64,000 bases of DNA from an uncultured Candidatus Saccharibacteria bacterium. Lineage in GTDB: Bacteria > Patescibacteriota > Minisyncoccia > Phycocordibacterales > GWA1-40-21. Every line of letters begins with the position of its first letter. Within the stretch, counting starts at the first letter, position 1. Below, piece after piece: positions 27,318-52,117 of this stretch. The translations under genes and the position numbers were made by a program. The notes beneath the pieces were generated by a model, which was not told the DNA's origin, did no database searches, and saw only the letters and a program-made list of their open reading frames with translations. The DNA is taken from assembly GCA_964613715.1 (NCBI GenBank), contig CAZTJK010000004.1:3834-67833 (forward strand), given 5' to 3'.

Positions 27318-27355
27318 AAAAAAATACGCCTGCCGACAGGCAGGCGTATTTTTTT
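27318..27355 (-). terminator. intrinsic terminator after glyQS
   Basis: A7-TACGCCTGCC-gaca-GGCAGGCGTA-T7. Confidence 0.65.
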
Positions 27356-28679
27356 ATGCAAGCATTTTTTTCAAATGGTCTTGCAGAGCGGAAATTTTTA
27401 TTCTCTCCTGCTTACCGGTATCGCGGTCGCGGACGGTCACGCAATCATCTTTTTCGAGCGTCTCGAAGTCGACAGTCACGCAGTACGGCGTGCCGATCTC
27501 GTCCTGGCGGCGATAGCGCTTTCCGATATTGCCATTATCATCGAACATCACTGCGCCAAATTCTTTTTTCAAGGCAGCGTATACTTCGCGTGCTTTCTTC
27601 ACGAGCTCCGGCTTGTTCTTCAGAAGCGGAAAAACGGCGATCTTCACTGGCGCAAGCGCAGGCTTGAAGCGCATGAAAATGCGCTTCTCCCCGCCGAGAT
27701 CGTCTTCGGTATAGGCCTCGGCAATGACCGCAAGGATGCTGCGATCGACACCGAAGGTCGGCTCGACGCAATGCGGCGTAAATTTCTGTTTGGCCTCTTC
27801 ATCCATGTATTCGAGGCTGACGCCCGAGGCATTGGAGTGGTTCTTCAGATCAAAATCGGTGCGGTATGCGAGGCCGTAGAGCTCGTTGACGCCAAACGGG
27901 AAATCGTATTCGAAATCGATCGTGCGCTTGGAATAATGTGCGAGCTTCTCCTTTGGCACTTCGAGCTCGTGAATATGATCTTTCGAAAGGCCAAGGGTCT
28001 CCGTCATCCATTTCCACATTTCTCCTCTCCAGTATTCAAACACTTTCTCCCAGTCCTCCCCTTTTAGGAAATACTCGATCTCCATCTGCTCGAATTCGCG
28101 GGAGCGGAAGGTGAAATCGCGCGGCGCGATCTCGTTCCTGAACGCTTTGCCGATCTGCGCGAGGCCAAATGGCAGCTTCGGGTGGAACGAATCGACAACA
28201 TTCTTATAATTGACGAACATGCCCTGGGCAGTTTCCGGGCGCAGATATGAGACAGATTCATCATTCTGCACGGGACCGACATTCGTCTTGAACATCATAT
28301 TGAACTGGCGCGCTTCGCCGAGCTCGCCGCCGCATTCCGGGCATTTCTTCTGGTCTTCGAGCTGGTCGGCGCGGAAGCGCTTCTTGCATTTCTTGCATTC
28401 GACGAGCGGATCGGAAAAGGTGGCGACATGGCCGGACGCACGCCACACATTCTGATTCATGAGAATTGCCGCATCAACACCGTACATGTCTTCGCGGTCG
28501 GTCACGAACGTCTTCCACCAGAGATTCCTGATATTATTTTTCAGCGTAATACCGAGCGGACCATAGTCCCAGGTACCGGCGAGGCCGCCATAGATTTCCG
28601 ATCCCTGATAGATAAAGCCGCGGCGCTTGGCGAGCGAGATGATGTCCTCCATGCGTGCGTTTGATTCCTTTTTCGCCAT
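27354..28679 (-). CDS. glyQS: glycine--tRNA ligase (alpha2, archaeal/eukaryotic-like type)
   Basis: N-terminal RRGFIYQGSEIYGGLAGTWDYGPLG and class II motifs. There is a Cys cluster (CKKCKK...CPECGGE). Confidence 0.85.
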   Translation of the reverse strand: MAKKESNARMEDIISLAKRRGFIYQGSEIYGGLAGTWDYGPLGITLKNNIRNLWWKTFVTDREDMYGVDAAILMNQNVWRASGHVATFSDPLVECKKCKKRFRADQLEDQKKCPECGGELGEARQFNMMFKTNVGPVQNDESVSYLRPETAQGMFVNYKNVVDSFHPKLPFGLAQIGKAFRNEIAPRDFTFRSREFEQMEIEYFLKGEDWEKVFEYWRGEMWKWMTETLGLSKDHIHELEVPKEKLAHYSKRTIDFEYDFPFGVNELYGLAYRTDFDLKNHSNASGVSLEYMDEEAKQKFTPHCVEPTFGVDRSILAVIAEAYTEDDLGGEKRIFMRFKPALAPVKIAVFPLLKNKPELVKKAREVYAALKKEFGAVMFDDNGNIGKRYRRQDEIGTPYCVTVDFETLEKDDCVTVRDRDTGKQERIKISALQDHLKKMLA

Positions 28680-31258: not shown

Positions 31259-31759
31259 TTAGCTTGCTTTTGCGAGTACCGGCTCAGCTTCAGCGAGATT
31301 CGCAGCGAGCGTCGTCATTTCTTTTGCAAGGTCGATCTGATCCTGATACGCCTCCTTCAGAGCAGCAGCATTTGCAAACGGTTCTATGCCAAGGACCGTC
31401 TTCGCACGGAATGCTTTGATGCCATCTTCAAGCTCGAGTACTTTCGCCCGAAGGTCTTCTATGCCGGCAAGGGCGGATTTTTTCTGCTTCTTCTGCTCCT
31501 CGCACAGCTTCAATATTTCAGAGATATGCGGCACGAGGCTTGAGAATTTGATCTTATTCGTCACGTCGGCATCGGTAAATTGATCGATGAGCTTCACGCC
31601 AAGATCGAGGCGGCCTGCAATCGCACCCGCAGCGCGTACCGCATCCTGCTTCTCAATGCGGGCTCGATTCTTCTGGATCTCCGCCTGCTTTTCCTGATTG
31701 ATCCAGCCCTGCTCGATATGCAGATTCTCCTCGCCGCCAAATTGTTCGAATGATGTCAT
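31259..31759 (-). CDS. hypothetical coiled-coil protein
   Basis: 166 aa, Ala/Glu/Lys-rich with heptad-like periodicity and no recognised domain. Confidence 0.4.
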   Translation of the reverse strand: MTSFEQFGGEENLHIEQGWINQEKQAEIQKNRARIEKQDAVRAAGAIAGRLDLGVKLIDQFTDADVTNKIKFSSLVPHISEILKLCEEQKKQKKSALAGIEDLRAKVLELEDGIKAFRAKTVLGIEPFANAAALKEAYQDQIDLAKEMTTLAANLAEAEPVLAKAS

Positions 31760-31774
31760 GTGCCTAGTATAGCA

Positions 31775-34700
31775 TTATTTGAGCGCAAGCTTGAATGACA
31801 TACCGTCGGCATCAAGCGTCTCTCCCCCGGATACAGCCTCAAATGAGACTTTTTTCAGGCTCGTTGCCTTCATGATCTCGGCTTCAAAAGCTGCTATAAG
31901 CGCCTTGCCTGCTTTATCCGTTTCCACGGAAAGCATTGCCGGATCGCCCGGATTGAGTTTCGCTGCTTTACGGAGCTCCTGGACAGCGCGCATGATCTCG
32001 CGCACGATTCCCTCTTCTTTCAGTTCTTTCGTAAGCGTTGTGTCGAGCTCGAGGTCAGTTGCAAGCGACACATCAAAGCTAATTGCTTTGACATTGAGCT
32101 CATCTTTCACAAGATCGAAATATGCCGGGCTATCTTTGAGCAGAGCCGATTTGATGCGGACAGATGCAAGCGGCTGGCGCACTTTGATGCCTGATTTTGC
32201 GCGCGCCTCGAGGCCGAGAGAAACGATTCGGCGGGTTTCATGCATAAGCTCGAGCGTTTGCACTTCTCTCTCCGAAAGCGTGCCGACAAACTGCTCCGGC
32301 CAGCTTTCCAGATGTACGCTTTCCTTTTGCATGCCGCCCGTAATCTTTAGATAAAGGTCTTCCGCAAGAAACGGCAGAGACGGCGCGATGAGCTTGGCGA
32401 ATTCCATGAGCACGGCTTTCGTGGTGAGCATGGCAGCATTACGATCATTCGCATCGTCCGACTTGAAGCGGTCGCGCGAACGACGCAAATACCAGGTTGA
32501 AAGATCGTCGACGAAATCCGCAACTGGCCGCGTGGCGCGATCGAGCTCGTATGCATCAGTTGCACGGGTCATCTCGCTTGCGGTTTCCTTGAGGCGCGCG
32601 ACAATCCAACGATCGAGAATATTGTCAGACACACTCGTGTTCATATCTGCATCGAATCCGCCATACATCTCGAAAAAGGAATAGACATTCTGGACGCGCA
32701 TGATGATTTTCTTCCCGACATCATCGACGCCCTTGTTGGCGAATTTCAAATCCTCGGCTTTCACCACGGGCGATGACAAAAGGTAATAGCGCAGCGCATC
32801 AGCACTGTATTCTGACACGAGCTCGAGCGGATCGGAATAATTATGCAAATGCTTCGACATTTTCTGGCCGTCTTCGGCAAGGACAATGCCATTTACCACG
32901 ACGTTCTTGTAGGATGATTCCCCGAACAGCGCGACGGAGAGAATGAGCATCGTGTAGAACCAGCCGCGCGTCTGATCGAGGCCTTCGGCGATGAAATCGG
33001 CCGGAAAGCGCTTGTGGGCCTTCGGATCGAAGAGTTTGCCGTTCTCAAACGGATAATGCATCTCGCCATACGGCATCGAGCCCGATTCAAACCAGCAGTC
33101 GAAAACTTCCGACACGCGTTTCATCCGCCCGCCGCACGCGCAGGGCAAGACCACTTCGTCGATGAAGGGACGATGCATGTCGAGCTCGTAATTGCGATTG
33201 TGCGGAATCGGTGCAAATGGCAATTCACGTATCTCGGAATTCCCGATGAAATCGATCTGGGTGCGCGTCTTCACAAGCTCGGTCGGATGCATGCCTGCCG
33301 CGCCGCCGAAAAGAAGCCATATCGGCGTATTATGCGAGACGATGAGCACTGTCTTGCCAACATGCTTGGCATCGATATCGTACAGAAACTCAGTAATGCG
33401 ATTCTTCACCTGCGTGTAATTCTCGCCGCCTTCCGGTGTCTTCGAGAATTTTTCAAAGCGGGAGCCAAAAAATGCCTGATATTCTGCATCCGGTCTGCCG
33501 TCGAGCACTCCCACATATATTTCGTGCAGACGCTCGTCGAAAACGATCTTGTCTTTCGGATAGCCGATGGTCTCAGCGATGATTTCGGCAGTCTCGCGCG
33601 TGCGCATGAATGGAGACGCATAGATGATATCTACCTTTTCCGTTGCAAGTTTCTTCCCTGCCTCCGCTGCCTGATGCCGGCCATTTTGTGTCAGATGATT
33701 GACTGTTTTCGGATTGGAGCTCAAGGTCCGCGTCAGATTGCTTTCCGCTTCGCCATGGCGTGCGACCAGGAAGCGATTGCCCTTGTTCGTCTTCGCTTTG
33801 ATATCAGCAACTGAACCGATAAAATGGGTTTCCTTGCATTTCTCGCAGCGCCAGACTGGCAGCGGCGCGCCCCAGAAGCGCGATCGGGAAATCGCCCAGT
33901 CGCGCGCGCCCTCGAGCCATTTGCCGAAGCGGCCCTCGCCTACCTCGTGCGGTACCCAGGAAATATGCTTGTTCGCCTCGATGAGCTTGTCCTTGAATTT
34001 CGTCACTTCCACGAACCAGGAGCTCGTCGCATAATTCAAAAGCGGCGTATCGCAGCGATAGCAATGCGGATATGAGTGGGTGAATTTCTCTTTAGCGAAC
34101 AGCTTCCCCTTGCCCGCAAGGAATTTGATGACTTCGATATCGGCAAGCTGCGAATTCTCGATCGGCTTCACTTTCTGTCCGGCGAATTCTTTCACCTCCG
34201 GCTTGAAACGGCCGTCCATGCCGACATGCTGGATGAAGGGCAATTTGTTCGTATTACCGAGATTGAGGTCATCCTCACCGAATGCCGGCGCGATATGCAC
34301 AATGCCGGTGCCGTCTTCGGTAGTGACGAATGCTGCACCATATACTTTCCAGCCATTCTCGCGATTTTTCAGATCCGGCTTGTCATAATAATCGAAAAGC
34401 GGCGTGTATGGCATGCCGACAAGCGCAGAGCCTGGAATTTTCTCGAGCAATTCGTATGTTTCTTTGATGACCGGCAAACGCGGCTCGGCAAGGATGAATT
34501 TTTCCGCGCCGATCTGGATCTTCGCATAATCGATATCGGGATTCACCGCGAGCGCGACATTGCCCGGCAAGGTCCATGGCGTCGTCGTCCAGGCCAGGAA
34601 AAATGTTCCCGGTTCGTCTTTCGATTCGAATTTCGCAATGACTGAAATATCGGTAATGTCCTTGTAGCCTTGGCTCACCTCGAAATTCGAGAGTGTCGTG

Positions 34701-35278
34701 CCGCAATGCGGGCACAGATGCATGGATTTGAAACCTTCATAGACGAGGCCTTTGTCGTGAAGCTGTTTGAATACCCACCAGACGCTTTCGGTGAATGATG
34801 GATTGATCGTGCGGTAGTCGTTTTCCATATCGACGAAGCGGCCCATGCGCGGGATGATCTTCTTCCAGTCCTCGACATAGGTAAAGACTTTGCTTTTCGC
34901 GATGTCATTGAATTTCTCGAGGCCGAATTCCTCGATATCCTTTTTCGACTTCAGACCGATCTCCTTTTCGACGATATTCTCGATCGGCAAGCCGTGGCAG
35001 TCCCAGCCCCAGCGGCGCGGCACATGGTAGCCGCGCATAGTCTGATAGCGGCCGACATAATCCTTGATTGTGCCGGCAAGCAAATTGCCATAATGTGGCA
35101 AGCCGGTCGCAAACGGCGGACCGTCGTAAAAGACGAATTCCCCTCGTGGAGATTCCTTCGCGAGCGTTTTTGCGAAGATATTCTTTTCCTGCCAAAAGGC
35201 GAGTATTTCCTCTTCCCGTTCGGCAATTTTACTCTTGGCGACCGGCGCTTTCGGTTTTTCGTCTTTATTTTGAGCCAT
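31775..35278 (-). CDS. ileS: isoleucine--tRNA ligase (type 2) carrying an in-frame histidine-phosphatase (PGAM-like) domain insertion
   Basis: HYGN (HIGH) and KMSKH (KMSKS) class I motifs, a CP1 editing domain and a Zn knuckle WRCEKCKETH. About 190 aa containing RHGEAESN, SPFMRTRETAEI and LIVSHN are inserted between ...HFIGS and HRPFIDEVVLPCACGG.... Confidence 0.9.
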   Translation of the reverse strand: MAQNKDEKPKAPVAKSKIAEREEEILAFWQEKNIFAKTLAKESPRGEFVFYDGPPFATGLPHYGNLLAGTIKDYVGRYQTMRGYHVPRRWGWDCHGLPIENIVEKEIGLKSKKDIEEFGLEKFNDIAKSKVFTYVEDWKKIIPRMGRFVDMENDYRTINPSFTESVWWVFKQLHDKGLVYEGFKSMHLCPHCGTTLSNFEVSQGYKDITDISVIAKFESKDEPGTFFLAWTTTPWTLPGNVALAVNPDIDYAKIQIGAEKFILAEPRLPVIKETYELLEKIPGSALVGMPYTPLFDYYDKPDLKNRENGWKVYGAAFVTTEDGTGIVHIAPAFGEDDLNLGNTNKLPFIQHVGMDGRFKPEVKEFAGQKVKPIENSQLADIEVIKFLAGKGKLFAKEKFTHSYPHCYRCDTPLLNYATSSWFVEVTKFKDKLIEANKHISWVPHEVGEGRFGKWLEGARDWAISRSRFWGAPLPVWRCEKCKETHFIGSVADIKAKTNKGNRFLVARHGEAESNLTRTLSSNPKTVNHLTQNGRHQAAEAGKKLATEKVDIIYASPFMRTRETAEIIAETIGYPKDKIVFDERLHEIYVGVLDGRPDAEYQAFFGSRFEKFSKTPEGGENYTQVKNRITEFLYDIDAKHVGKTVLIVSHNTPIWLLFGGAAGMHPTELVKTRTQIDFIGNSEIRELPFAPIPHNRNYELDMHRPFIDEVVLPCACGGRMKRVSEVFDCWFESGSMPYGEMHYPFENGKLFDPKAHKRFPADFIAEGLDQTRGWFYTMLILSVALFGESSYKNVVVNGIVLAEDGQKMSKHLHNYSDPLELVSEYSADALRYYLLSSPVVKAEDLKFANKGVDDVGKKIIMRVQNVYSFFEMYGGFDADMNTSVSDNILDRWIVARLKETASEMTRATDAYELDRATRPVADFVDDLSTWYLRRSRDRFKSDDANDRNAAMLTTKAVLMEFAKLIAPSLPFLAEDLYLKITGGMQKESVHLESWPEQFVGTLSEREVQTLELMHETRRIVSLGLEARAKSGIKVRQPLASVRIKSALLKDSPAYFDLVKDELNVKAISFDVSLATDLELDTTLTKELKEEGIVREIMRAVQELRKAAKLNPGDPAMLSVETDKAGKALIAAFEAEIMKATSLKKVSFEAVSGGETLDADGMSFKLALK

Positions 35279-35317
35279 AGTTCAGATAGAAATCCATTGT
35301 AGCAGCTTTTTGCCAAA

Positions 35318-35349
35318 GAAAAAGGGCGGTCATTTTGTACCACCCTTCT
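35318..35349 (-). terminator. intrinsic terminator after the small Zn-ribbon gene
   Basis: On the minus strand AAGGGUGGU-acaaaaug-ACCGCCCUU (with one G-U pair), then UUUUCUUUGG. Confidence 0.5.
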
Positions 35350-35655
35350 TTATTCTGTCCAACTCAAATCAAAAAGTTCCCTGACTGCTTTCTTAATTTT
35401 ATGAACCTCTCCATTCTTAAGAATATTGTACAATGCGGAAATTCTTAGCATCGCATGCTCTATCCAAGCTAACCGACTCATATTAGAGACTGTTAATTCA
35501 GCTATCTGCTTTTTCAAATCAGCAATCTCTTTAAATGGTCCCTCAGCAAGCTTGTGTGGAAGATCGATATCACACTGTACACCCCCGCATGTCACACCAT
35601 TCTTTGAATCTATCATTGATGGTGTTTTGCATACAAAACAATGGCCTAATCGCAT
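35350..35655 (-). CDS. hypothetical small protein with N-terminal Cys4 zinc-ribbon-like motif, AT-rich gene
   Basis: Strong SD (GAGGAGGTG, 6 nt from the ATG), a CxxC...CxxxxC motif, and its own terminator. GC is about 38% against ~55% in the flanks. Confidence 0.5.
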   Translation of the reverse strand: MRLGHCFVCKTPSMIDSKNGVTCGGVQCDIDLPHKLAEGPFKEIADLKKQIAELTVSNMSRLAWIEHAMLRISALYNILKNGEVHKIKKAVRELFDLSWTE

Positions 35656-35703
35656 GAAAACACCTCCTCAAAAAATAGAGAGACAATTTCTACAAAAAAC
35701 ATA

Positions 35704-37518
35704 TCACATCCGCTCTGGCGCAGCAATGCCGAGCAGATTCAAGCCGTTTTTAAGCACGATTGAAAACGCATCGGTGAGCGCCACCTTGTATGGCGAGGTC
35801 AGGTCTGCATCATCCACGATCTTGTTCTTCGCATAAAAGCTATTGAACGAGGACGCGAGCTCGATGAGATAGAACGTAATATAGTGCGGCGAATACTCTG
35901 CGCCAGCGCGCGCGACGACTTCCGGAAATCGATAGAGCATTTTCTCAAGCTCGCTGACTTCTCCCGTCCCCTTTTTCGGGCTCGGCTTTACCTTGGCGCT
36001 TTTGGCCTTGCGGATGATCGACCGCGCACGCGCATATGAATACTGCAGATAAGGCCCGGAATCTCCCTCGAATGAGAGCGATTTTTCGAAATCGAAAATG
36101 ATGTCCTTGCCGGTCACTTGGCGAAGGATTGCATACTTGAGCGCGCCAACTGCCACCTGTTCTATCACTATCTGCCGCTCTTTCTCGCTCATCTCGCGAT
36201 CCGTCATCTTTGCGGCGACTTTTTCCTTCACGTCTGAAAGCAATGACATGAACGTAATCACGTCTCCGGTACGCGAGGACATTTTGCCGCTCGGCAAGCG
36301 CAGCATGCCATGGGAGACATGCGAGGTCTTTGCAGCAAGATCCGGAAATACGAGACTCATCGCTTTCAGGAGCACTTTAAAATACTCATTGATCTCATTG
36401 CCCGTCACGATAATAGACTTGTCGTATTTCGTCTTGTCGTATTTTATCTTTGAAAGGCCGAGCTCTTTCGCTTCATAGGTCGGCAAGCCCTCGTTGTTTA
36501 TGAACACGCGCGTATGTAGGCCGTATTTCTCCCCGGGGAAAATGATCGAGCCCTTCTCGCCTTTCTCGAATACCGGGCCGATATTCTTTTCCACAATTTC
36601 CTTGCCGAACGGCCCTGTCTTGCTCTCGAAGAAATAGACAGCGAATTTCGTGCCGAGAATTTTGTAGATGGATTCGAAATAATCTAGAGAGATCTTCCGG
36701 CCCCAGTCATAAAGCTTGTTTATCGCCTTGTCTGATCGGTCATAAATTATCTTGTTCAGTTCGGCAAGTCCTGCCTTATACTTCTCCTGGCCAAATTCTG
36801 GTTCCTGAGCACCGGTAGCATATGCTTTTCCTAAAAATACCGCCTTCGCTTCGAGTGATTCCTTTTCGGGAAGCATGATCCCTTTATCAAGCGCAAGGAG
36901 CCTCATGCCATATATTGCCTTCGCTACATGCAACCCCACATCGCCCTGATAACAGGCGCGCTTCACCTTCGCACCATTCGCTTCCACGATGCGCGAGATG
37001 GACTCGCCGATCGAGTTCGACATGAGATGGCCGATATGGAATTCCTTGAATGGATTCGGATCAGTGTACTCGACGACCGTCTTCGCACCTTTCAAATCTT
37101 TGCTGGTTCCGAATTTATTTCCAGCTTTTATAATATCTGCTGTCGCGCTCGCAAAAAACTGTGGCGACAGGGTGAAATTGATGAAGCCCGGACCGGCAAC
37201 CTCTACCTTCTCTACTTCCTTCGGCTTGCTCTTGAGGATTTCTGCGACGATTTTTTCTGCAAAAGCACGAGGATTATGAAAATTTTTTGTTTCATTTACT
37301 GGCCTATATGTAGTCCAGACACCATGTTTTTCATTATGAATAACCTTCGAGGTCGGTCCGAAATATTTTAATGCAATAGTTGTTGTGTAATCGCCATGAG
37401 AAAGCTCGGCTGGATGCTCGAGCACGATTGCCCCATCTGCCGGCAGGCCGAGGCTTTTCAGACTATTCTGTATGGCTTTTTCCAATGCAGAGCGAATCAT
37501 ATTCTGAAAGCTTATCAC
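35704..37518 (-). CDS. argS: arginine--tRNA ligase
   Basis: HIGH motif (FHIGHLMSN), a KMSK-like SGKMSSRTG, and the C-terminal DALR anticodon-binding segment (YLQYSYARARSIIRKA). Confidence 0.92.
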   Translation of the reverse strand: MISFQNMIRSALEKAIQNSLKSLGLPADGAIVLEHPAELSHGDYTTTIALKYFGPTSKVIHNEKHGVWTTYRPVNETKNFHNPRAFAEKIVAEILKSKPKEVEKVEVAGPGFINFTLSPQFFASATADIIKAGNKFGTSKDLKGAKTVVEYTDPNPFKEFHIGHLMSNSIGESISRIVEANGAKVKRACYQGDVGLHVAKAIYGMRLLALDKGIMLPEKESLEAKAVFLGKAYATGAQEPEFGQEKYKAGLAELNKIIYDRSDKAINKLYDWGRKISLDYFESIYKILGTKFAVYFFESKTGPFGKEIVEKNIGPVFEKGEKGSIIFPGEKYGLHTRVFINNEGLPTYEAKELGLSKIKYDKTKYDKSIIVTGNEINEYFKVLLKAMSLVFPDLAAKTSHVSHGMLRLPSGKMSSRTGDVITFMSLLSDVKEKVAAKMTDREMSEKERQIVIEQVAVGALKYAILRQVTGKDIIFDFEKSLSFEGDSGPYLQYSYARARSIIRKAKSAKVKPSPKKGTGEVSELEKMLYRFPEVVARAGAEYSPHYITFYLIELASSFNSFYAKNKIVDDADLTSPYKVALTDAFSIVLKNGLNLLGIAAPERM

Positions 37519-50647: not shown

Positions 50648-52117
50648 TTAATCTTTCCTCGCAAAAAGCGGCGTTTCTGGCTTCTTGTTTTCTTTGATGA
50701 GTACAAGCATCTTTTCTGCGGTTTCTGCTAAAAACGGCTTGAGATTATAGGCGATTTCGGCAAGGCAGGCAATATATTCTTCGAGCAGTTTCTTGCCCGC
50801 CGCGGCATCGGTTTTCACCACTTTGAATACTTGCTCATCGGAAATTCTCTTGTCGAGCTTGCCAACGAGCGTCCAGACGAGCTCTGCAGCATGCTGAAGA
50901 TTGAAACTATCGAGCGCGCCCGCGACGAATGCATTCATCTCTTTCTTGCATTCGTCCTCTACAATCGCTGCGGCAACTTTCGTATCGATATATTTTTCTG
51001 ACAGCGTGAGAATGCGGCTCGTGAGGTTCCCGATACCGTTCGCAAGGCCAGCATTGTAAGCCTCTTTGAATGCTTCCATGGTAAACGGCGAATCTTCAAA
51101 TGAAGACACTTCGCGCAACAGATAATAGCGCAGCGCGTCTGTGCCGTATTCGGCGACGAGCGCGAGCGGGTCGGCGACATTGCCGAGCGATTTCGACATT
51201 TTCACGCCGCCTGCGCCCGTGATGAAGCCGTCGATCACAATCGTCTGGGAATTTGGCAGTCTTGCAGCCATGAGCATGGCCTGCCACATGGCGGACTGCT
51301 GGCGGAGATTGTCCTTGCCGCAATATTGCACCATGCCGCCACTCTCTACTTGCCATTTCTCGAAGCTTTTTGAGTCACTCGGCCAGCCGATGGTGGAAAT
51401 ATAATTGACGAGTGCGTCGAACCACACATACATCACCTGCTTTTCATCACCTGGCACCGGCACGCCCCAGGGCATCTTCTCGGCAAGGCGCGAAATGGAA
51501 AAATCTTGGAGGCCGCGCGAGACAAATGCCTTGATCTCATTGAAGCGAGTGTCGGGAATGACGAAATGCGGATGCTCGGCATAGAATTTCAAAAGCTTGT
51601 CCTGGAATGCCGACCATTTGAAGAAATAATTCTCTTCGTCGATGAGCTCGAGCTCGAGATTCGGATGATCCTTGCAGCGGCCGTTCTCAAGCTCAGATTC
51701 TGATTTCTCAAGCTCGCAGCCGACGCAGTATTTGACCTGGTAATTCTTCTTGTAGATATAGCCGTTTGTGTCGCAGACCTTCCAAAACTCCTGCGCTGCT
51801 GCGACATGATGCGCATCAGTAGTACGGATGAAATGCACGTCCTCCGAAATACCGAGCTCGGTAAGCGCCGCTTTGAATTTCGCCGCATATGAATCAACGT
51901 ACGCTTGGATATTCTTCCCCTCTTCGGTTGCCTTGCGATAGACCTTCTGGCCATGCTCGTCGGTGCCGGTATTGAAAAAGACATCGAAGCCTTGGAGCTT
52001 CTTATAGCGAGCGATTGTATCTGCGCGGACGAATTCAAGCGCGTGGCCAAGATGCGGCTCTGCGTTCACATACGGCAAAGTCGTCGTGATATAAAAAGGT
52101 TTCTTGTCTCCAGTCAT
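50648..52117 (-). CDS. metG: methionine--tRNA ligase (short form)
   Basis: HLGH (HIGH) and KMSKS motifs and a zinc knuckle (CVGC...C). Confidence 0.92.
   Translation of the reverse strand: MTGDKKPFYITTTLPYVNAEPHLGHALEFVRADTIARYKKLQGFDVFFNTGTDEHGQKVYRKATEEGKNIQAYVDSYAAKFKAALTELGISEDVHFIRTTDAHHVAAAQEFWKVCDTNGYIYKKNYQVKYCVGCELEKSESELENGRCKDHPNLELELIDEENYFFKWSAFQDKLLKFYAEHPHFVIPDTRFNEIKAFVSRGLQDFSISRLAEKMPWGVPVPGDEKQVMYVWFDALVNYISTIGWPSDSKSFEKWQVESGGMVQYCGKDNLRQQSAMWQAMLMAARLPNSQTIVIDGFITGAGGVKMSKSLGNVADPLALVAEYGTDALRYYLLREVSSFEDSPFTMEAFKEAYNAGLANGIGNLTSRILTLSEKYIDTKVAAAIVEDECKKEMNAFVAGALDSFNLQHAAELVWTLVGKLDKRISDEQVFKVVKTDAAAGKKLLEEYIACLAEIAYNLKPFLAETAEKMLVLIKENKKPETPLFARKD

Follow-up and report, generated by a model that had tools for sequence, protein, structure and literature searches.

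A predicted histidine phosphatase nested within the isoleucyl-tRNA synthetase of Paceibacteria

Why does an essential aminoacyl-tRNA synthetase harbour a complete second enzyme domain within its own reading frame? The question is raised by the ileS gene in a 64,000-nucleotide stretch of DNA from an uncultured Candidatus Saccharibacteria bacterium (GenBank assembly GCA_964613715.1, contig CAZTJK010000004.1, positions 3,834–67,833 of the forward strand), which is referred to below as the window. The product of the gene is a type-2 isoleucyl-tRNA synthetase (IleRS), similar to the enzymes of Thermus and eukaryotes, into which a segment with the signature of a histidine phosphatase is nested. Few enzymes are as highly conserved as the aminoacyl-tRNA synthetases, the bacterial members of which are usually regarded as lacking accessory catalytic domains beyond their editing modules. 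Throughout a bacterial class with minimal genomes, in hundreds of species, one such essential enzyme contains another enzyme that is apparently active. The reading that we favour, tentatively and with slightly less than even confidence, is that the protein is bifunctional, with an autonomous small-substrate phosphomonoesterase module riding on IleRS.

The phosphatase domain and its place in the synthetase

The ileS open reading frame (ORF; 31775..35278; this and all other features of the gene are on the minus strand) runs without interruption over 1167 amino acids and a stop codon. In the Pfam layout of the protein, the family tRNA-synt_1 is split into two pieces with His_Phos_1 between them, and Anticodon_1 and DUF5915 complete the chain. 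The inserted segment of 195 residues (aa 502–696, 33191..33775) comprises the histidine phosphatase domain and a conserved C-terminal connector (FIxNSE..FAPIPHN). An earlier inspection of the same DNA, the sequence-only reading, had placed a histidine phosphatase in a continuous, stop-free ileS frame at 33188..33781, which corresponds to residues 500–697. The segment matches the Pfam hidden Markov model, solved phosphatase structures and, in prediction, their fold, so the assignment holds.

The core of the domain (aa 504–670, 33269..33769) is recognised by His_Phos_1 (PF00300) with an E-value of 2.2e-35 and 122.5 bits, against a gathering cutoff of 21.7, and covers positions 2–168 of the 194 in the profile. 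Among solved structures, the insert matches PhoE (Protein Data Bank (PDB): 1ebb, 1e-14) and PspA (4ij5, 1e-13), and 1h2e is also matched. The alignment to PhoE 1ebb pairs Arg507 and His508 of the RHG motif (33755..33760) with PhoE R9 and H10, and His508 is the predicted phospho-acceptor nucleophile. The same alignment makes Arg559 of the SPFMRTRE motif (33602..33604) the second phosphate-binding arginine, Glu586 of HEI (33521..33523) the predicted general acid/base, and His649 of VSHN (33332..33334) the second catalytic histidine. All four motifs had been quoted in the sequence-only reading. The R-H-R-E-H pentad is kept in 180 of the 184 copies located at the same site of IleRS; across all sites, about 97% of the 344 copies retain it.

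When modelled alone using AlphaFold2, the insert adopts the histidine phosphatase fold with a predicted local distance difference test score (pLDDT) of 89.3. A Foldseek search with the model returned PspA (4ij5), PhoE (1h2e and 1ebb), an Entamoeba phosphoserine phosphatase, GpgP Rv2419c, CobC (6nru among the matches) and TIGAR, with a probability of 1.0 and template modelling (TM) scores of 0.70–0.76. The domain thus shares the fold and the full catalytic set of the branch-1 phosphatases PhoE, PspA and CobC (1EBB, 1H2E, 4IJ5, 6NRU), with sequence identity of 26–28%. Unlike them, it is nested in another enzyme instead of being a free-standing protein of about 200 residues, and its loop after RHG reads SSNPK..HLT in place of the usual QGW.D. 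The net charge of the insert is about 0 to -4, that is neutral to acidic, and the domain does not have a basic RNA-binding surface. Residues and predicted fold together indicate that the insert is apparently a catalytically competent branch-1 histidine phosphatase of the PhoE/PspA/CobC type.

In NCBIfam, the insert is matched best by the RNase H/acid phosphatase model PRK07238, in its phosphatase half (95.6 bits, cutoff 326), followed by the archaeal cofactor-dependent phosphoglycerate mutase (dPGM) model NF038349 (92 versus 225) and by PspA (75 versus 350). Below their cutoffs are also the dPGM models PRK01295 (42 versus 316) and TIGR01258 (28 versus 82), CobC TIGR03162 (74 versus 163), SixA (35 versus 74.5) and GpmB. 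Because every NCBIfam equivalog model scores far below its cutoff, substrate specificity cannot be transferred to the insert from the known families. The insert belongs to the same superfamily as dPGM and shares its catalytic core; however, Val589 and Asp597 occupy what we take to be the dPGM positions, 3 and 11 residues after the catalytic glutamate, at which mutases have tyrosine and lysine.

Alignments of the protein to IleRS structures from the PDB end at about residues 495–499 and restart at residue 700. After deletion of residues 502–696, the remainder aligns collinearly, and without a gap at the junction, to residues 419–619 of Thermus thermophilus IleRS, and also to the yeast and human enzymes. 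The junction residues read ..KGN/RFL.. and ..NRN/YELD. The native loop between 'IGS' and 'HRP' has about 18 residues in Thermus, to which the window IleRS adds about 195; the sequence-only reading, with its 15–20-residue linker and roughly 190 extra residues, had come close on both counts. The insert can be assigned to the tip of the connective peptide 3 (CP3) hairpin because the insert-deleted alignment superimposes the flanking cysteine pairs on those of the Thermus zinc knuckle. Cys478 and Cys481 of the CEKC motif (33836..33847) form the first half of the knuckle and, counted along the alignment, are equivalent to T. thermophilus Cys461 and Cys464, whereas Cys713 and Cys715 of the CAC motif (33134..33142) form the second half and are equivalent to Cys502 and Cys504. 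As judged from this alignment, the phosphatase takes the place of the zinc-clamped hairpin tip, where Thermus has about 7 residues (481–487).

CP3 has been named in the published structures of Candida (residues 473–534) and yeast (459–526) IleRS; the Thermus CP3 contains a zinc motif, and the topology of CP3 varies among IleRSs (PMC7191050; PMC7955072). The segment directly before CP3, which in yeast is ARDWNVSRNRYWG, lines the pocket that accommodates the CCA end of tRNA and reveromycin (PMC7955072). Its counterpart in the window IleRS, also directly before CP3, is ARDWAISRSRFWG, and the DCWFESG motif follows CP3 after about 12 residues. In class I synthetases, this motif helps to form the amino-acid pocket. 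The sequence-only reading had put the insert into the catalytic core, which is right in so far as the insert is within IleRS; its site, however, is CP3, a connective peptide at the periphery whose root adjoins the active site, and not the Rossmann core.

The part of IleRS before the insert (aa 1–501, 33776..35278) contains the first half of the Rossmann fold, the connective peptide (CP) core, the CP1 editing domain, CP2 and the first half of CP3. The part after the insert (aa 697–1167, 31778..33190) contains the rest of CP3, the second half of the Rossmann fold with the DCWFESG and KMSKH motifs, the anticodon-binding domain and DUF5915. The whole protein scores 863.8 bits against the NCBIfam ileS model TIGR00392, the cutoff of which is 621.4. 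The best PDB matches are the IleRSs 9w01, 8c8u and 1ile, with E-values of about 1e-221 to 1e-225, whereas the type-1 enzyme of Staphylococcus aureus, 1ffy, is matched at 7e-95. The isolated editing domain 1wk8 matches at 1.5e-34, and the CP1 editing motifs T231–T233/P234/W235/T236 (TTTPWT) and G323/G325/H328 (GTG.VH) are invariant in 83 sequences. Zinc-binding cysteines are arranged as CxxC/CxxC at positions 189/192 and 406/409, and as CxxC/CxC at 478/481 and 713/715; all eight are invariant across 120 close homologs. The mupirocin-resistance models for MupA and MupB (NF000257 and NF000258) give 742 and 731 bits, below their cutoff of 1900.

The protein is a type-2 IleRS, to judge from its greater similarity to type-2 enzymes, its two Cys4 zinc sites and its C-terminus, which consists of DUF5915 and has no zinc-binding domain like that of type-1 enzymes. 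Domain order, motifs and zinc sites are the same as in the enzymes of T. thermophilus (1ILE) and Priestia megaterium (IleRS2, 8C8U/8C8V) and in the eukaryotic cytoplasmic enzymes. The differences from typical type-2 enzymes are the phosphatase in the CP3 hairpin loop and an asparagine as the fourth residue of the HIGH signature, which reads HYGN (aa 62–65, 35084..35095); the KMSKS signature reads KMSKH (aa 806–810, 32849..32863). Of 116 close homologs, 110 have histidine as the last residue of HIGH (HYGH), and 6 have asparagine (HYGN). The full-length AlphaFold2 model has a mean pLDDT of 91.9 and a predicted TM score of 0.84, with values of 88–97 for the blocks of the insert, and superposes on IleRS2 8c8v (TMt 0.84) and on Thermus 1ile (TMt 0.92). 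The best reading of the conserved motifs and of the predicted model is that the gene product would be a working type-2 IleRS, in agreement with the earlier impression of intact HYGN, KMSKH and CP1 motifs.

Conservation, distribution and insertion sites

The nested phosphatase is not peculiar to the window genome. In all of the 120 best of 8000 scored homologs (56–100% identity), PF00300 is located inside IleRS, and the named members belong to Paceibacterota, Minisyncoccia or Patescibacteria. Selection was gauged by the amino-acid conservation of individual domains rather than by the ratio of nonsynonymous to synonymous substitutions (dN/dS), because the nearest relatives are 73–74% identical at the protein level and synonymous sites are saturated. 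Averaged over the 120 homologs, identity to the window protein reaches 0.61 for the insert and 0.62 for the anticodon-binding domain, compared with 0.71–0.76 for the catalytic and editing regions and 0.44 for the C-terminal domain; within the insert, 42 columns are invariant. This degree of amino-acid conservation shows that the insert has been under long-term purifying selection.

One genome per GTDB species was scanned using an alignment of the closer inserts, and at least 581 loci were found to encode a relative. In the best 80 of these loci, the phosphatase has IleRS flanks on both sides in every case. They include Wolfebacteria (complete genome CP011209.1), Taylor-, Lloyd-, Vogel- and Kaiserbacteria and Parcubacteria RAAC4_OD1_1; the taxon labels are those of the submitters, and many of the 'Saccharibacteria' labels among the scanned loci are probably generic labels for the Candidate Phyla Radiation (CPR). 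No second copy of the phosphatase was found in the window or in the 80 best related loci. Taken together, the comparisons of homologous proteins and loci show that the nested phosphatase is an old, clade-wide inherited feature of Paceibacteria/Parcubacteria. The survey of related genomes and the comparison with other type-2 enzymes had both been proposed in the sequence-only reading, which expected the segment to be absent from type-2 IleRSs in general. It is indeed missing from the Thermus, yeast, human and Priestia enzymes, and the prediction of a functional chimera instead of a pseudogene is supported by the conservation of the insert, catalytic residues included, among the close homologs and related loci.

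Three other origins of the insert were considered and rejected. Like an intein, the insert is a large in-frame insertion into a conserved region of an essential enzyme; unlike an intein, it has no splice-junction residues at its ends, no Hint or intein family is found among the Pfam matches at E<=0.01, and it is a conserved enzyme domain that evidently remains part of the mature protein. On this point, too, the earlier inspection was right. A pseudogene is rejected on the uninterrupted frame and the conservation of the insert across homologs. Against a recent horizontal insertion speak the same conservation and the GC content, which is 0.51–0.52 across the insert, the same as in its flanks.

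An exhaustive HMMER search with the insert alone against 1.84 billion representatives of 50%-identity clusters gave 15,103 matches. Among the best 150 of these representatives, 106 are IleRSs, full length or fragments, that carry the domain, with insert identities down to about 30%. The truly free-standing close relatives number fewer than 44, since P0194 and P0128 are on contigs of about 1 kb or shorter, with P0128 filling the whole of a 636-bp contig, and P0138 is a gene-calling artefact. Two free-standing proteins, P0235 (410 aa) and P0243 (404 aa), consist of two tandem histidine phosphatase domains with intact catalytic residues in both, and group in a rough tree with IleRS copies from sites other than CP3.

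The apparent 219-aa phosphatase P0138 originates from an ileS gene in which UGA is recoded. The whole of the contig concerned (L085:1-1362; ENA ERZ23499197, TREM19-1_SAMN09060594_METAG-scaffold_42854) is one frame of an ileS fragment with the phosphatase insert in CP3, 51.6% identical to residues 315–768 of the window IleRS. The fragment contains seven in-frame TGA codons, all at positions of tryptophans in the window protein (W421, 441, 453, 461, 469, 476 and 729). As judged from these positions, this relative apparently reads UGA as tryptophan, unlike the glycine reported for Gracilibacteria/SR1. Gene callers split the phosphatase-bearing IleRSs of recoded genomes, and domain-based metabolic reconstructions could miscount such enzymes as 'phosphoglycerate mutase'.

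The same phosphatase family is present in other loops of IleRS. Insertion sites were mapped by removing the phosphatase envelopes, aligning the remainder globally to an insert-less reference and reading off the cut points, and they are given in the numbering of the window protein. The site of the window protein, CP3a, between residues 501 and 697, carries the phosphatase alone in 183 proteins. A second CP3 site after the CxC motif, CP3b (aa 706–725), is occupied alone in 16 proteins, the loop after DCWFESG (aa 735–760) in 5 and a loop of the anticodon-binding domain (aa 865–890) in 45, and all three also occur in combinations. One fragment, P0157, has the domain in CP2, at about residues 420–436. 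Some representatives carry two to four phosphatase domains, and after site mapping the maximum is three copies per IleRS (P0272 and P0275). A search with P0219, a 1419-aa protein with phosphatases in the aa 735–760 and anticodon-domain loops, yielded a second large set, the labelled members of which are IleRSs of Gracilibacteria, Peregrinibacteria and Peribacteria. P0219 is encoded on a 28.6-kb long-read contig (L082:4001-8260; ENA ERZ25074195 ctg43262) beside genes for a DAHP synthase and a large protein with an SLH domain, which are unusual genes to find in a CPR genome.

The phosphatase copies group by site and differ strongly between sites. The nearest neighbour of a copy comes from the same site in 166 of 184, 22 of 22, 16 of 21 and 61 of 62 cases, site by site, whereas identity between sites is 29–34%, and that between copies within one protein 26–41%. 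On these comparisons, the site-specific copies are old, separately maintained lineages and not recent duplications. A rough neighbour-joining tree of the IleRS cores, built like the other trees from identity distances, arranges the proteins in blocks by site class, with insert-less IleRSs scattered among them. This pattern implies several gains and/or losses.

Besides the histidine phosphatase, IleRSs of CPR bacteria are a hotspot for nested domains (P0120, P0271, P0283, P0321, P0331, P0332, P0347 and P0353), and the proteins reach 1400–1860 residues. The nested families are GNAT acetyltransferases, DUF559 endonuclease-like domains, alpha/beta 'Ser_hydrolase' domains, P-loop kinases of the AAA_33/AAA_18/Zeta type and HAD domains; an IS200-type Y1 transposase domain is known from precomputed annotation only. 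P0120 and P0271 carry both GNAT and phosphatase domains, whereas P0332 and P0347 combine the phosphatase with an AAA_33/Zeta-type P-loop kinase. In P0331, which is without a histidine phosphatase, HAD_2 is found at residues 567–733 above the threshold, and a weaker HAD match at 815–923 is below it. A protein in the JGI data is named 'isoleucyl-tRNA synthetase/phosphohistidine phosphatase SixA/...'.

The tRNA-metabolism enzyme TsaC (threonylcarbamoyl-AMP synthase, Sua5/YrdC) of CPR bacteria (P0265, L083:977-2140, and homologs) also has many fusion partners. An MGMT-like domain (PF01035) is present in most clusters, and further partners are TruB, a 2H/LigT-like phosphoesterase, GNAT, NUDIX and a methylpurine glycosylase. 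In 4 clusters only, TsaC is fused to a histidine phosphatase that is a close relative of the IleRS insert. We considered this fusion as a clue to function and gave it little weight, since it is rare and the partners of CPR TsaC are numerous and unrelated.

Accessory enzymes nested in IleRS are known to annotators, as NCBI curates an exception model for IleRS with GNAT (NF040702, ileS_w_GNAT). The window IleRS resembles that family in the principle of nesting, but it has no GNAT domain in Pfam, scores 317 bits against a cutoff of 1999, and carries the phosphatase at a different site. The RNase H/acid phosphatase proteins (PRK07238; Rv2228c/SCO2299 type) also join a histidine phosphatase to an enzyme of nucleic-acid metabolism, in that case end to end rather than nested, and we know of no explanation for the functional link. 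The sequences have been public since the Parcubacteria genomes of 2013–2015, and both halves are annotated in domain databases. In the full-text literature, the coverage of which excludes most subscription journals, we found no published description or test of a phosphatase-bearing IleRS, which is absence of evidence only. What is notable beyond the known appended and nested domains of synthetases is the clade-wide conservation, the nesting in CP3 and the recurrence at several loops.

Possible roles of the nested phosphatase

If the phosphatase is an autonomous module that rides on IleRS, one polypeptide would contain two separate active sites, that of the synthetase and that of the phosphatase at the tip of the CP3 hairpin. 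By analogy with the chemistry of the family, the phosphatase would remove a terminal phosphate via a phospho-His508 intermediate, with Arg507, Arg559 and His649 holding the phosphate and Glu586 donating a proton. It would be produced together with IleRS and kept near the synthetase or its ligands, and would not be channelled geometrically to the synthetic site. An autonomous rider is suggested by the occurrence of the phosphatase family in several IleRS loops across CPR lineages and of unrelated enzymes in the same loops. The fusions of CPR TsaC are equally promiscuous, which also favours this view. A fixed geometry is not expected, since the phosphatase occupies loops as distant as CP3 and the anticodon-binding domain, and a small substrate is favoured because the fold neighbours are all small-molecule phosphatases and the domain is neutral to acidic. 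Several points weigh against the autonomous rider. The root of CP3 adjoins the 'ARDW..SR.R.WG' segment and DCWFESG, so the phosphatase may lie close to the synthetic site. Apart from IleRS, our searches showed close relatives fused to TsaC alone, an ATP-using, adenylate-forming enzyme of tRNA metabolism. The search of cluster representatives was seeded with an IleRS-borne copy, which biases the partners that emerge. One phosphatase family at several sites of IleRS, together with the two HAD-family matches in P0331, which is without a histidine phosphatase, looks like selection for phosphatase chemistry at IleRS, a pattern that simple piggy-backing does not predict.

The same recurrence, specific to IleRS, at several loops and in multiple copies, is what could be expected if the phosphatase were coupled to the charging of tRNAIle. 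It would then remove a blocking phosphate or pyrophosphate from A76, or dephosphorylate a nucleotide in the neighbourhood of the active site; a phosphorylated tRNA end or a small nucleotide had been put forward as substrate, as inference only, in the sequence-only reading. The substrates could be a 2'- or 3'-phosphate, a 3'-phosphate derived from a 2',3'-cyclic phosphate, or a pyrophosphate, and IleRS would repair and charge its own tRNA. The HAD-family domains that P0331 has in place of the histidine phosphatase fit this explanation, and so does the pairing of phosphatase and kinase in P0332 and P0347, which presumably resembles that of kinase-phosphatase end-healing enzymes. Several loops could all reach a substrate as large as tRNA, the root of CP3 adjoins the segment of the CCA pocket (PMC7955072), and the best NCBIfam match of the insert, although below its cutoff, is to an RNase H/acid phosphatase. 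Conversely, the fold neighbours and the charge of the domain point to small substrates. A general lesion of tRNA ends would need repair for all tRNAs, yet the ArgRS, MetRS and class II synthetase of the window have no inserted domain. Nor is a kinase, toxin or ligase gene conserved beside ileS in the 55 related loci that are long enough. We know of no member of the histidine phosphatase superfamily that acts on RNA ends. On balance, coupling to charging appears possible but doubtful. Its most specific form, in which a built-in phosphatase for tRNA ends or adenylate-site nucleotides would clear a 2'/3'-phosphate or pyrophosphate from A76 of tRNAIle just before charging, as a repair or anti-toxin step for which histidine phosphatase and HAD folds would have been recruited convergently into several loops, strikes us as improbable.

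A core metabolic enzyme relocated into ileS, whether the phosphoglycerate mutase of glycolysis or a phosphatase such as one for phosphoserine, would account for a reported gap, because the mutase is apparently absent in several shallow Parcubacteria clades or 'possibly too divergent' to detect (PMC7304191). The second-best and third-best NCBIfam matches of the insert, to archaeal dPGM and PspA, and the phosphoserine phosphatases among its structural neighbours agree with such an origin. Even so, the dPGM, PspA, CobC and GpmB equivalogs are all far below cutoff, and valine and aspartate replace the mutase tyrosine and lysine. Gracilibacteria-labelled IleRSs carry the domain, although a complete Gracilibacteria genome is reported to be without glycolysis (PMC7304191), and a single metabolic step hardly explains two or three copies per IleRS. 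We consider a role as glycolytic mutase unlikely, and relocation of any core metabolic phosphatase has a slight probability. The diversity of small-molecule-modifying families on one target enzyme, which is often the target of antibiotics, could instead mean that the nested phosphatases, GNAT domains, hydrolases and kinases are in-cis immunity modules that inactivate inhibitors or antimetabolites at IleRS. Acetyltransferases and hydrolases are known resistance enzymes against aminoacyl-adenylate mimics (MccE/RimL, MccF, MccH), a precedent by which the idea is drawn purely by analogy. The known IleRS inhibitors do not have a terminal phosphate that would need removal, and ileS is linked to no biosynthetic or transport genes in the 55 loci, so that the probability is slighter still. 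Least probable is that the insert has lost catalysis and serves as a structural or regulatory module (a pseudo-enzyme or phosphate sensor), or that it is a selfish insertion which the host tolerates. CP3 is structurally variable among IleRSs and tolerant of change (PMC7191050), and the DUF559 endonuclease-like and IS200-type transposase domains inside CPR ileS ORFs suggest that some insertions are selfish. However, the catalytic pentad is retained almost throughout in copies that are only about 30–47% identical overall, the rate at which the insert evolves is as low as that of the anticodon-binding domain, and its GC content matches that of the host gene.

The overall pattern implies that a link of phosphate-ester hydrolysis to IleRS has been selected in CPR bacteria or, at the least, that IleRS is a privileged scaffold for accessory enzymes. 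The phosphatase-bearing IleRS is an easy target for biochemistry and cryo-EM.

Gene neighbourhood of ileS

Four aminoacyl-tRNA synthetase genes, all on the minus strand, are present within one 25-kb part of the window. In addition to ileS, they are a class II synthetase gene of the G/H/P/S/T type (27354-28679), argS (35704-37518) and metG (50648-52117), which encodes a compact enzyme of 489 residues. The surroundings of ileS are of a housekeeping character and comprise genes for a DUF11 protein, recO, a hypothetical protein, ileS, argS, the class II synthetase, an M16 peptidase, glyA and thyA. The order DUF11 protein, recO, hypothetical protein, ileS and argS is found in 37–43 of 55 related loci. 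Rfam has no matches in the window, which also contains no tRNA genes, so that neither a T-box nor any other leader was recognised upstream of ileS.

The spacer between ileS and argS (35279-35703) has a length of 425 bp and is AT-rich, with a GC content of 0.37–0.38 compared with about 0.52 around it. It contains an orphan ORF without a Pfam match (35350-35655, minus strand), which encodes 101 amino acids with a cysteine-rich start. Directly downstream of ileS, another ORF without a Pfam match (31259-31759, minus strand) encodes a protein of 166 residues that, by prediction, is charged and looks helical.

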